Assembly: GCF_057098645.1 (NCBI RefSeq)
Contig: NZ_CM169472.1
Length of the DNA stretch: 64,000 nucleotides
Direction: 5' to 3' (one strand)
A program made the position numbers. Below are positions 1-6,000 of this stretch, one piece after another; positions within the stretch are counted from its first letter, which is position 1; each line of letters opens with the position of its first letter.

Positions 1-3000
1 TCCTGCGGCGAGTGGGCGTGTTTACGCGGCTTATGGTGGCGTTTATGTCTGCACGGCGTTGATGTGGCTGCGCGTTGTGGATGGCGTGAAACTGACACTT
101 TATGACTGGACGGGTGCGTTGATTGCGCTTTGCGGCATGTTGATCATTGTTGCGGGCTGGGGGCGCGCGTAGGAACATAAATCCATTTTATCAATAAGAT
201 ACGAGGAAGCGTCAGCTGACAAAAGGTATTCTATTTCATCTTTTGTCAACCATTCACAGCGCAAATATACGCCTTTTTTTGTGATCACTCCGGCTTTTTT
301 CGATCTTCATACTTGTATGGTAGTAGCTCAGTTGCGTAGATTTCATGCATCACGACAAGCGATGCAAGGAATCGAACATGAAGATCGTAAAGGCTGAAGT
401 TTTTGTTACCTGTCCGGGGCGTAATTTCGTCACATTAAAAATCACCACTGAGGACGGTATTACGGGCCTTGGGGATGCCACCCTCAATGGACGTGAGCTT
501 TCCGTGGCCTCTTATTTGCAGGATCACCTTTGTCCGCAGCTTATTGGTCGCGATGCGCACCGTATCGAAGATATCTGGCAGTTTTTCTATAAAGGTGCTT
601 ACTGGCGTCGCGGTCCGGTTACGATGTCGGCCATTTCAGCGGTTGATATGGCGCTGTGGGATATTAAAGCCAAAGCTGCCAACATGCCGCTTTACCAGTT
701 ACTCGGCGGCGCGTCTCGTGAAGGGGTGATGGTTTATTGCCATACCACCGGTCACAGTATTGATGAAGCTCTGGATGATTATGCCCGTCATCAGGAGCTG
801 GGATTCAAAGCCATCCGCGTGCAGTGCGGCATCCCTGGTATGAAAACCACCTACGGCATGTCGAAAGGTAAAGGTCTGGCTTATGAACCCGCAACCAAAG
901 GACAGTGGCCGGAAGAGCAGCTGTGGTCGACGGAGAAATACCTCGATTTCATGCCGAAATTGTTTGACGCGGTACGTAACAAGTTTGGTTTTAATGAACA
1001 TTTGCTGCATGACATGCACCATCGCTTAACGCCTATTGAAGCGGCGCGCTTTGGAAAAAGCATTGAAGATTATCGCATGTTCTGGATGGAAGACCCGACG
1101 CCTGCGGAAAACCAGGAATGCTTCCGTCTCATTCGCCAACATACCGTCACACCCATCGCGGTGGGTGAAGTCTTCAACAGCATCTGGGACTGCAAGCAAC
1201 TGATTGAAGAGCAACTTATCGATTATATCCGCACCACGCTGACCCATGCAGGCGGAATTACCGGTATGCGCCGGATTGCCGATTTTGCTTCGCTGTATCA
1301 GGTACGTACTGGCTCACACGGTCCTTCCGATTTGTCACCAGTCTGCATGGCTGCGGCGCTGCACTTTGATCTGTGGGTCCCCAATTTCGGTGTCCAGGAA
1401 TACATGGGTTATTCCGAACAAATGCTCGAAGTCTTCCCGCACAACTGGACTTTCGATAACGGCTATATGCATCCGGGAGACAAACCGGGTCTTGGTATCG
1501 AATTCGATGAAAAGCTGGCGGCGAAATATCCCTATGAACCTGCTTATCTACCAGTCGCACGTCTGGAAGATGGCACGCTGTGGAACTGGTAAGGAGTAAG
1601 ATAATGAAAAGCATATTAATTGAAAAACCGAATCAACTGGCGATTGTCGAACGTGAAATACCCACCCCGTCAGCGGGTGAAGTACGAGTAAAAGTGAAAC
1701 TTGCCGGAATTTGTGGTTCAGATAGCCATATTTATCGTGGGCATAATCCTTTTGCGAAATATCCGCGCGTCATTGGTCATGAATTCTTTGGCGTCATTGA
1801 TGCAGTGGGTGACGGCGTGGAAAGCGCCAGAGTCGGTGAACGTGTTGCTGTCGATCCGGTGGTCAGCTGTGGGCATTGCTATCCGTGCTCAATAGGTAAG
1901 CCGAACGTTTGTACGACACTGGCTGTATTAGGTGTGCACGCTGACGGTGGTTTCAGTGAATATGCCGTGGTTCCGGCAAAAAATGCGTGGAAAATTCCTG
2001 AAGCAGTGGCCGATCAATATGCGGTAATGATCGAACCTTTTACCATTGCGGCTAACGTAACCGGTCATGGTCAACCGACTGAAAATGATACCGTTCTGGT
2101 TTACGGTGCCGGTCCAATCGGCCTGACGATCGTTCAGGTATTAAAAGGCGTCTATAACGTTAAAAATGTGATTGTTGCCGATCGCATTGATGAACGACTG
2201 GAAAAAGCGAAAGAGAGCGGGGCTGACTGGGTGATTAATAACAGCCAGACACCGCTTGGCGAGATTTTCGCTGAAAAAGGCATCAAGCCGACATTAATTA
2301 TAGATGCGGCTTGTCATCCTTCTATCCTGAAAGAGGCCGTAACGCTGGCTTCTCCAGCGGCACGTATTGTATTGATGGGCTTCTCCAGTGAACCTTCTGA
2401 AGTGATTCAGCAACTAATTACCGGAAAAGAACTCTCTATTTTCTCTTCACGCTTAAATGCAAATAAATTCCCGGTCGTTATCGACTGGTTAAGTAAAGGG
2501 TTAATTGAACCAGAAAAATTAATTACCCATACGTTTGAATTCCAGCATGTTGCTGATGCCATTAGTTTATTTGAACAGGATCAAAAACATTGCTGCAAAG
2601 TCTTACTCACTTTTTCTGAATAATACCAATAACGGCGAGTAAGTAGTACGCATCTTACCTCTTTTTTAGAGATAACCATTATGACAATAGAAAAACACGA
2701 AAGAAGCACTAAGGATTTGGTGAAAGCAGCAGTATCGGGATGGCTGGGCACTGCGCTTGAATTTATGGATTTCCAGTTATATTCGCTCGGCGCAGCGTTA
2801 GTGTTTCATGAAATATTTTTTCCTGAATCATCAACGGCAATGGCGTTAATTTTGGCAATGGGAACCTACGGTGCAGGTTATGTGGCGCGTATTGTCGGAG
2901 CATTTATTTTCGGCAAAATGGGCGACAGAATAGGGCGTAAAAAAGTGCTCTTTATTACCATCACCATGATGGGGATCTGTACCACCTTAATTGGTGTGTT

Positions 3001-6000
3001 ACCGACCTATGCACAGATTGGTGTTTTTGCCCCCATCTTGCTGGTGACGCTGCGTATTATTCAGGGGTTGGGTGCAGGTGCGGAAATTTCCGGTGCCGGT
3101 ACGATGCTGGCGGAATATGCGCCAAAAGGTAAGCGCGGAATTATCTCCTCATTTGTAGCTATGGGAACTAACTGCGGAACCTTGAGCGCAACGGCAATCT
3201 GGGCCTTTATGTTCTTCATTCTCAGTAAAGAGGAACTGCTGGCGTGGGGATGGCGTATACCGTTCCTGGCGAGCGTTGTCGTGATGGTCTTTGCTATCTG
3301 GTTACGTATGAATCTGAAAGAAAGCCCGGTCTTTGAGAAGGTTAATGACAGCAACCAACCGACAGCAAAACCTGCACCTGCTGGTAGCATGTTCCAGAGC
3401 AAATCCTTCTGGCTGGCAACAGGGCTGCGTTTTGGTCAGGCGGGTAACTCCGGTTTAATTCAGACTTTCCTTGCAGGCTATTTAGTACAGACGTTATTGT
3501 TTAACAAAGCAATTCCAACAGATGCATTGATGATCAGTTCGATTCTCGGCTTTATGACCATTCCGTTCCTTGGTTGGTTATCCGATAAAATTGGTCGCCG
3601 GATCCCGTATATTATTATGAATACCTCTGCGATTGTACTGGCGTGGCCAATGCTTTCTATCATCGTAGATAAAAGCTATGCCCCAAGCACCATTATGGTT
3701 GCACTGATTGTGATTCATAACTGTGCGGTGCTGGGATTATTTGCTCTGGAAAACATTACCATGGCAGAAATGTTCGGCTGTAAAAACCGCTTTACCCGGA
3801 TGGCTATTTCTAAAGAAATTGGTGGTCTTATCGCTTCCGGTTTTGGTCCTATCCTGGCGGGTATTTTCTGCACCATGACGGAATCCTGGTATCCGATCGC
3901 CATTATGATCATGGCATATTCAGTGATTGGTTTAATCTCTGCGCTGAAAATGCCAGAAGTGAAAGACCGTGATTTAAGTGCGCTGGAAGACGCTGCAGAA
4001 GATCAACCGCGTGTTGTAAGAGCTGCGCAACCTTCCAGAAGTCTTTAAATCCTCAATCCCTTCTCTTACCGGAGAGGGGATTTTTTATTCATATAACAAA
4101 ACATGTAGCTTGCCATATTTATATTTAAGGAATAGTTATGGGAAATAATTTGTTATCAGCAAAAGCGACGCTTCCTGTTTATGATCGTAATAACCTGGCC
4201 CCAAGAATTGTTCATTTAGGCTTTGGTGCATTTCACCGTGCGCATCAGGGCGTGTATGCCGATATTCTTGCTACAGAACATTTCAGTGACTGGGGATATT
4301 ATGAGGTCAACTTAATCGGTGGCGAACAGCAAATTGCCGATTTACAACAGCAAGATAATCTTTATACCGTTGCGGAAATGTCGGCCGATGCGTGGACGGC
4401 ACGCGTCGTTGGCGTCGTTAAAAAAGCCTTGCACGTACAGATGGATGGCTTAGAAACCGTGTTGGCTGCGATGTGTGAACCGCAAATCGCGATTGTCTCT
4501 CTGACAATCACCGAAAAAGGGTATTTCCACTCTCCGGCGACCGGACAGTTAATGCTCGATCACCCGATGGTCGCTGCCGACGTGCAAAATCCCCACCAGC
4601 CGAAAACAGCAACAGGGGTGATTGTTGAGGCGCTGGCTCGCCGTAAAGCGGCAGGACTTCCCGCATTTACCGTCATGTCATGTGACAACATGCCAGAAAA
4701 CGGTCATGTTATGCGTGACGTTGTCACTTCATACGCACAAGCCGTTGATGTAAAACTGGCACAATGGATCGAAGATAACGTGACTTTCCCATCAACAATG
4801 GTGGACCGTATTGTGCCCGCAGTGACAGAGGATACGCTGGCGAAAATCGAACAGCTTACCGGTGTGCGCGATCCTGCTGGCGTTGCCTGTGAACCTTTCC
4901 GCCAGTGGGTAATCGAAGATAACTTTGTTGCCGGACGTCCGGAATGGGAAAAAGCGGGAGCCGAACTGGTTAGTGATGTGCTGCCTTATGAAGAGATGAA
5001 GTTGCGCATGCTCAACGGCAGTCATTCATTCCTGGCGTATTTGGGTTATCTTGCCGGATATCAGCACATTAATGACTGTATGGAAGATGAACATTATCGT
5101 TATGCGGCGTATGGCTTGATGTTGCAGGAACAAGCGCCGACGCTGAAAGTGCAGGGCGTTGATTTGCAAGATTACGCTAACCGATTAATTGAACGCTATA
5201 GCAACCCGGCGTTACGTCATCGAACCTGGCAGATTGCGATGGATGGCAGCCAGAAATTGCCACAGCGGATGTTGGATTCTGTTCGCTGGCATCTGGCGCA
5301 TGACAGCAAGTTCGATCTGCTGGCGCTGGGCGTCGCGGGTTGGATGCGTTATGTCGGTGGTGTTGATGAACAGGGAAATCCGATAGAAATCAGTGACCCA
5401 CTGTTACCTGTTATTCAGAAGGCTGTACAAAGTAGTGCCGAAGGGAAAGCGCGCGTCCAGTCATTGCTGGCGATTAAGGCGATTTTTGGTGGTGATTTGC
5501 CAGACAATAGCTTGTTTACTGCAAAAGTGACGGAAGCGTACTTGTCTTTATTAGCGCATGGCGCGAAAGCGACCGTGGCGAAATATTCCGTGAAGTAAAA
5601 AAAGCAATGCCGCCATCGGCGGCATTCACACGCTTAGTTCATGCCGAGACGAATCAGGTCCAGAGGTGCCAGTTTCTCTTCACAACCTTCAACAACTACG
5701 GTTTTTCCGCGGCGGATTTGCTCAGCGGTCAGACCTTCAGTATCAATCGACAGGATCTTGCCAGTGTGACCGGTGCCGCTAACCATAACACGGCTGCCAG
5801 TGGTGATTGCGTTACGGTTACGATCGTAGGTCGTCATAGGTGTTTTCTCCTTTCTGATTTACAGTCGAAGCCCACGTAACGGGCGCAATATAAATACTCC
5901 TGTCGAGTGAAATATTTTTTGTTTTTGATCAAGCTCACATCTTTTTTGATGCATGCATGAGCCATAAGGCGGGGGTAAAGACTCTCATCCCGGATGGGAT

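Follow-up and report, generated by a model that had tools for sequence, protein, structure and literature searches.

An empty lambdoid prophage attachment site within an intact ydfJ in an Escherichia coli genome

We analyzed a stretch of 64,000 nucleotides (referred to below as the window) from contig NZ_CM169472.1 of NCBI RefSeq assembly GCF_057098645.1, with a focus on the junction between rspB and the transporter gene ydfJ, where the Qin cryptic prophage resides in Escherichia coli K-12. Positions 2624-4048 represent an ordinary, uninterrupted rspB-ydfJ junction with an empty bacterial attachment site (attB) inside an intact ydfJ, a reading to which we assign a probability of roughly 0.9. 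Both the empty ydfJ site and the native form of the gene are already known from the literature and from RefSeq.

A six-frame listing of open reading frames (ORFs) identified ydfJ as a 455-aa ORF with an ATG start at 2681-4048 on the plus strand. The stop of rspB at 2623 leaves a spacer of 57 bp (2624-2680), and RefSeq annotates strains 05-3629 and EC1515 with identical coordinates, an identical 57-bp gap and a ydfJ that is likewise 1368 nt long. The encoded protein is identical to WP_000151243.1 at 455/455 residues and exceeds the curated NCBIfam cut-off of TIGR00883, the metabolite/H+ symporter (MHS) family (462.9 bits vs 443.45), with profile positions 1-400 matching residues 23-418. Judged against orthologues, YdfJ is full length and retains its N-terminus, the Enterobacterales orthologues aligning from residues 1-8. 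A PDB sequence search matched no structure at E<=1e-10, which leaves the boundaries of the first transmembrane segment (TM1) without a structural anchor, and Kyte-Doolittle hydropathy shows TM1 to be too amphipathic to delimit.

The site itself is empty. Window positions 1-9000 are collinear with the host flanks of Qin in K-12 and hold no extra DNA; no integrase, excisionase or other phage gene was found between rspB and ydfJ, where only the 57-bp spacer lies. Host sequence is continuous across the point at which lysogens have attL and attR, and the 16-bp attachment core, TGAATTTATGGATTTC, is single-copy in the 64-kb window even with 2 mismatches allowed. Among matches of >=200 bp, to which the listing was restricted, the only Qin-derived sequence in the window is an unrelated fragment of the insertion sequence (IS) IS2 at 39735-40228. 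The original prediction, made from the sequence alone, had described a full-length ydfJ directly behind rspB, free of phage genes, integrase and attachment-site scars and displaying the native gene sequence; the annotation, collinearity, single-copy core and protein identity described above bear this out.

The Qin junction in K-12 and the ydfJ site across E. coli

The prediction had further stated that Qin parts rspB from ydfJ in K-12 and splits ydfJ, and the MG1655 annotation and alignment agree. The annotated order is ydfJ (b1543, 427 aa), Qin (1632277-1652745, 20.5 kb), intQ (a pseudogene), ynfP (36 aa) and rspB. In a blastn comparison, the rspB side was matched by window positions 1-2776 and the ydfJ side by 2758-9000, and no other sequence intervened. 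The two alignments overlap by 16-19 bp (2758-2776), a segment containing the 16-bp core, and the insertion point corresponds to window positions 2758-2773, placing the junction at ydfJ codons 26-31. Qin does not lie elsewhere in MG1655, and the K-12 ydfJ is not intact.

K-12 YdfJ lacks the first 28 codons: it starts at the native Met29, and from there on it does not differ from the YdfJ of the window. YnfP consists of YdfJ residues 1-31 followed by five phage-derived residues. The locus confirms the native ydfJ sequence and shows 'ynfP' and the 427-aa 'YdfJ' of K-12 to be two halves of a single Qin-split gene. On the K-12 locus (L001), ynfP occupies 30729-30839, corresponding to window positions 2681-2773. 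The ynfP sequence listed in PMC6001520 is the same YnfP sequence, and ynfP has been termed 'possibly fragmented' in a preprint. Its deletion was reported to slow recovery from nitrogen starvation (bioRxiv 10.1101/2020.03.30.016519); since ynfP is the orphaned 5' end of ydfJ, this phenotype would then trace to a fragmentary gene or its locus.

At attR, the phage arm reads TGAATT-ATG, with one T less than in attB. An in-frame stop, TGA, thereby falls two codons ahead of Met29, and hence the phage supplies no replacement N-terminus. The T-run reads TTT in attB and in attL (bacterial) and TT in attR (phage), from which we infer strand exchange on the right-hand side of the T-run, within ATGGATTTC. 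With the MHS profile beginning at residue 23, lysogens that lack 28 codons would also lack its first positions, among them the conserved G-x-x-x-E-F segment ahead of MDF. Given this profile start and the general features of the MHS family, part of TM1 would probably be removed as well. Qin was previously placed at the 5' end of ydfJ, with loss of the promoter and of 28 codons, and was found in 48% of 638 strains (Ramisetty & Sudhakari 2019, PMC6379469).

To describe the site across the species, a 400-bp probe centred on the core was compared with complete E. coli genomes. It was contiguous in 37% of them (2007/5426), and most of the non-contiguous genomes are split at probe positions 192-210, which correspond to the core. 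The same attachment cores bound several independent prophages, as read at attL/attR in K-12, MSHS 133, O111 11128, Z1323HEC0422, C325, RM9872 and RM13514. The ydfJ prophage is uninterrupted in MSHS 133, with an integrase and xisR; that of O111:H- 11128 carries nleG7, and those of C325, Z1323HEC0422 and RM9872 carry nleC. Outside the window, the core likewise flanks integrase-bearing prophages (intQ in K-12, int/xisR in MSHS 133 and int/xis in Z1323HEC0422). Lambda-like integration at ydfJ, or at ydfJ-rspB, was listed earlier for W, K-12, B, Crooks and SE11 (PMC3032704, PMC2608844).

These observations are consistent with a mechanism in which Qin-type lambdoid phages would use the attB core at 2758-2773 for site-specific integration by a tyrosine integrase. 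Where such a phage has integrated (K-12, B, W, O111, O145 and ~62% of complete E. coli genomes), ydfJ is severed from the upstream rspA-rspB and deprived of its first 28 codons, and a small 5' fragment, known in K-12 as 'ynfP', stays beside rspB.

Prophage history of the site in the closest relatives

The locus had also been proposed to represent the pre-integration state. This holds for its structure, which is the attB form, but is unproven as history, since precise excision by integrase and excisionase (Int/Xis) restores the same sequence. To place the window among its relatives, the two flanks were searched separately; an unsplit 9-kb search ranked the split matches of the relatives below distant contiguous genomes. 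The flanks are ~99.97% identical to the O145:H28 clade of enterohaemorrhagic E. coli (EHEC), C325, UTME-3 and Z1323HEC0422, and the next-best genomes reach 99.2%.

The site is occupied or rearranged in all of ~22 complete relatives, its two halves never adjoining. In ten of these, match coordinates show the halves separated by 47-51 kb more than in the window. Annotation confirms a lambdoid prophage at ydfJ in C325 and Z1323HEC0422, the latter having uninterrupted int and xis genes next to rspB, beside attL. In eleven further relatives the halves lie on opposite strands, 0.2-1.7 Mb apart, pointing to inversion through the ydfJ prophage. The O145 genomes arranged in this way comprise NZ_CP006027.1, NZ_CP028379.1 and at least nine others, and their layout implies large chromosomal inversions with one end in the ydfJ prophage. 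In RM13514 and RM9872, ydfJ is immediately preceded by prophage genes (nleC in RM9872) and itself contains a further element of the IS3 family. The attR-side phage arm differs between RM13514 and RM9872/Z1323HEC0422/C325, which suggests prophage turnover at the ydfJ site within the O145:H28-related clade. The empty site is common in the species, yet unseen among the complete genomes of the O145:H28-related clade.

To distinguish a site that was never occupied from one that was vacated, single-nucleotide polymorphisms (SNPs) were compared over ~55.5 kb with Z1323HEC0422 and RM13514, and over 30.4 kb of this also with C325 and RM9872, covering 4 of the ~22 relatives. The outgroups were EC1515 and K-12 in the 30.4 kb and only K-12 elsewhere. 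Nine derived bases are private to the window, as is one difference (47228) that is not polarisable. At 24798, 43314 and 48727, a derived base is common to all lysogens in the comparison, and the window keeps the outgroup base. With three such sites and a single conflicting one, the window would branch off just outside these lysogens. We therefore lean, without great assurance, towards a lineage never lysogenised at ydfJ, because one acquisition on the stem of the lysogens is a simpler account than acquisition and later loss.

Several points weigh against an unbroken history of vacancy. The conflicting site, 42187, lies in a repeat-rich autotransporter gene and groups the window with the lysogen RM13514; the SNP comparison was limited to ~55 kb; and all of the ~22 nearest complete genomes are occupied or rearranged at the site. 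The rival history is that of a cured lysogen, whose ancestor would have carried the 47-51 kb NleC-type prophage of the relatives and in which attB and ydfJ would have been restored by precise Int/Xis excision or by homologous recombination with an empty allele that replaced the occupied one. Excision is feasible, given the uninterrupted int/xis of the Z1323HEC0422 prophage, and with exchange in ATGGATTTC it would regenerate the observed TTT-type attB exactly; the differing attR phage arms within the clade suggest turnover of the site. Curing is nevertheless the less expected history in our assessment, although a plausible one: the three SNP sites put the window outside the compared lysogens, with the one conflict noted, and a gain plus a loss needs more events. 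The window also contains no remnant or scar, though precise excision would leave none. The T-run (TTT in attB, TT in attP) was considered as an excision scar and rejected as non-discriminating, exchange to its right restoring TTT.

In every complete clade genome examined, an NleC-type effector prophage or an inversion through it disrupts ydfJ. At odds that we put a little short of even, the source strain may belong to the O145:H28 EHEC-related clade as a naturally prophage-free member, or be its closest outgroup. If so, it would be a natural near-isogenic comparator for the cost or benefit of YdfJ loss (sugar-acid uptake) on effector-phage acquisition, and could be used to catch an effector phage in the act of integrating. 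This strain context is the only mildly unusual aspect of the locus, of possible interest for EHEC prophage dynamics.

An assembly artefact, in which a real prophage was collapsed or skipped and rspB falsely joined to ydfJ, is very improbable. Lambdoid prophages are repeat-rich and able to break assemblies, but nothing specific points to such an event here. The join restores a perfect ORF identical to WP_000151243.1, the arrangement matches the contiguous form in 2007 complete genomes, and a misjoin spanning a prophage would not rebuild a core of the bacterial TTT type flanked on either side by its bacterial arm. That K-12 has Qin elsewhere or ydfJ intact, making the locus uninformative about a prophage site, can practically be dismissed, since the MG1655 annotation and alignment place Qin between ynfP/rspB and the 427-aa ydfJ, as in PMC6379469.

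The rspAB-ydfJ-ydfI cluster and other elements of the window

The features of the cluster are collected in Table 1. Past ydfI, the genes ydfZ, rspR and ydfG follow on the minus strand, and then dcp. RspB is related to L-idonate 5-dehydrogenase, but scores below the cut-off of that family.

Table 1 Features of the rspAB-ydfJ-ydfI region in the window
Feature	Position	Strand	Basis
rspA, D-mannonate dehydratase of the ManD type	378..1592	+	NF043051, 743.9 bits vs cut-off 550; RefSeq coordinates in collinear EC1515
rspB, Zn-dependent oxidoreductase, 339 aa	1604..2623	+	NF007489, 690.8 bits vs cut-off 376; same span annotated in 05-3629 and EC1515
rspB-ydfJ spacer, 57 bp, no predicted promoter or terminator	2624..2680	+	Sequence; promoter/terminator scan
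Intact ydfJ, 455-aa MHS-family transporter of the major facilitator superfamily	2681..4048	+	ORF list; TIGR00883; identity to WP_000151243.1
Unoccupied attB core TGAATTTATGGATTTC, ydfJ codons 26-31, encoding (L)EFMDF	2758..2773	+	Overlap of the two K-12 alignments
Terminator-like hairpin and T-run just past the ydfJ stop	4055..4082	+	12-pair stem, then TTTTATTCAT
ydfI, fructuronate-reductase-type, mannitol dehydrogenase family	4138..5598	+	NF011611, 646.1 bits vs cut-off 603
rspR (ydfH), DNA-binding transcriptional repressor RspR in the K-12 annotation	6014..6700	-	ORF; same coordinates in collinear EC1515; K-12 annotation

Conservation of the gene order was assessed by a degenerate-codon scan for the motif EFMDFQLY with one genome per species, a YdfJ orthologue being defined by >=70% identity. 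At least 42 Enterobacterales loci with a YdfJ orthologue were recovered. Of the 42 listed, 34 also contain rspB, which lies directly upstream of ydfJ on the same strand in every one (34/34), with a spacer of 36-113 bp in 30/34; rspA usually precedes rspB-ydfJ and ydfI usually follows. The genera listed include Enterobacter, Citrobacter, Klebsiella oxytoca, Pluralibacter, Lelliottia, Shimwellia and Siccibacter, as well as Pectobacterium, Brenneria, Serratia, Budvicia, Gilliamella and Providencia; no Escherichia outgroup species was among the matches listed. The contiguous rspB-ydfJ order is ancestral, and K-12 is in the derived state at this locus. Beyond bookkeeping, the locus has little significance other than as a reminder that K-12 is derived at ydfJ, and phenotypes of the rspAB-ydfJ-ydfI cluster are best studied in empty-site strains such as the source strain.

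The motif EFMDFQLY, encoded at the attachment core, is also conserved in actinobacterial MHS transporters. In several actinobacterial genomes, a YdfJ homologue of ~56% identity adjoins ManD (RspA-like) and YdfI-like genes (for example loci L031, L048, L070, L105, L119 and L120 among the listed scan loci L004-L123), so that the linkage of transporter and enzymes reaches well beyond Enterobacterales.

Full-length ydfJ is probably co-transcribed with rspAB. A scan found no promoter-like or terminator-like site on the plus strand of the 57-bp spacer, and the 12-pair hairpin with its T-run stands past the ydfJ stop; co-transcription also fits the 'promoter loss' described in PMC6379469. The neighbouring genes further suggest a function: with RspA of the ManD type, YdfI of the fructuronate reductase subfamily and RspB a Zn-dependent dehydrogenase, YdfJ probably imports a sugar acid processed by RspA, RspB and YdfI. 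Enzymes of the RspA, RspB and YdfI types have reportedly been assigned to L-gulonate catabolism, in work of 2014 by Wichelecki and co-workers; within the literature searched, nothing relevant linked ydfJ or rspAB to L-gulonate.

Several additional elements were observed elsewhere in the window. A minimal Tn3-family transposon of 3.79 kb (51846-55632) lies between ydeQ and ydeP, encoding a resolvase (52020-52652) and a transposase (52633-55599) and bounded by ~38-bp terminal inverted repeats with an apparent 5-bp target duplication, TTTAA. It is absent at this place from K-12, Z1323HEC0422 and RM13514. Copies with 100% identity occur on many E. coli plasmids, several of Z1323HEC0422 among them, and full copies were found in only 33/5426 genomes. 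An IS2 remnant of ~1.05 kb (39178-40228) resides inside an autotransporter gene of the yneO type (ECSE_1600 family); its TnpA looks intact, and its TnpB lacks ~140 N-terminal residues. The remnant overlaps the K-12 alignment by 5-6 bp and is not at this position in K-12, Z1323HEC0422 or RM13514.

At 43898-44638, hipB is intact and only a remnant of hipA persists (residues 1-17 and 104-244 of 440), indicating an antitoxin kept without its toxin; relatives of the O145:H28 clade are annotated with the same partial hipA. A 498-bp stretch missing from K-12 (23163-23660) falls within the dgcF region (ORF 23228-24646). With this stretch, the diguanylate cyclase ORF encodes 472 aa, annotated as 'sensor domain-containing' in relatives; K-12 DgcF has 315 aa and appears to be N-terminally truncated. 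Finally, a complete chaperone-usher fimbrial operon head occupies 45388-49893, comprising a FimA-like major subunit (45518-46129), a chaperone (46481-47200) and a full usher of 883 aa (47242-49893), of which only a truncated ydeT and the yneL pseudogene remain in K-12.

Comparison with known prophage integration sites

The nearest counterpart is the Qin site in K-12 ydfJ (PMC6379469), with which the window shares the host genes, the 16-bp core and the junction position, representing the attB counterpart of the K-12 attL and attR. Unlike K-12, the site in the window is empty, the 28 N-terminal codons are kept, ydfJ stands 57 bp behind rspB and no ynfP fragment exists. The effector prophages at ydfJ in EHEC and enteropathogenic E. 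coli (nleG7 in O111:H- 11128; nleC in the O145:H28 clade, C325 and Z1323HEC0422) use the same attB as that found in the window, whose flanks match the O145:H28-clade hosts at the ~99.97% given above. In contrast to these strains, the window has neither the prophage nor the IS3-family insertion present in the ydfJ of RM13514 and RM9872.

Site-specific integration at a short core inside a protein-coding gene is likewise known for Rac in ttcA and e14 in icd, where e14 leads to a duplicated icd 3' end and Rac to an altered TtcA N-terminus (PMC6379469). The ydfJ site differs from both in that the phage arm puts a TGA before Met29 and provides no substitute N-terminus, so that the gene is just truncated.

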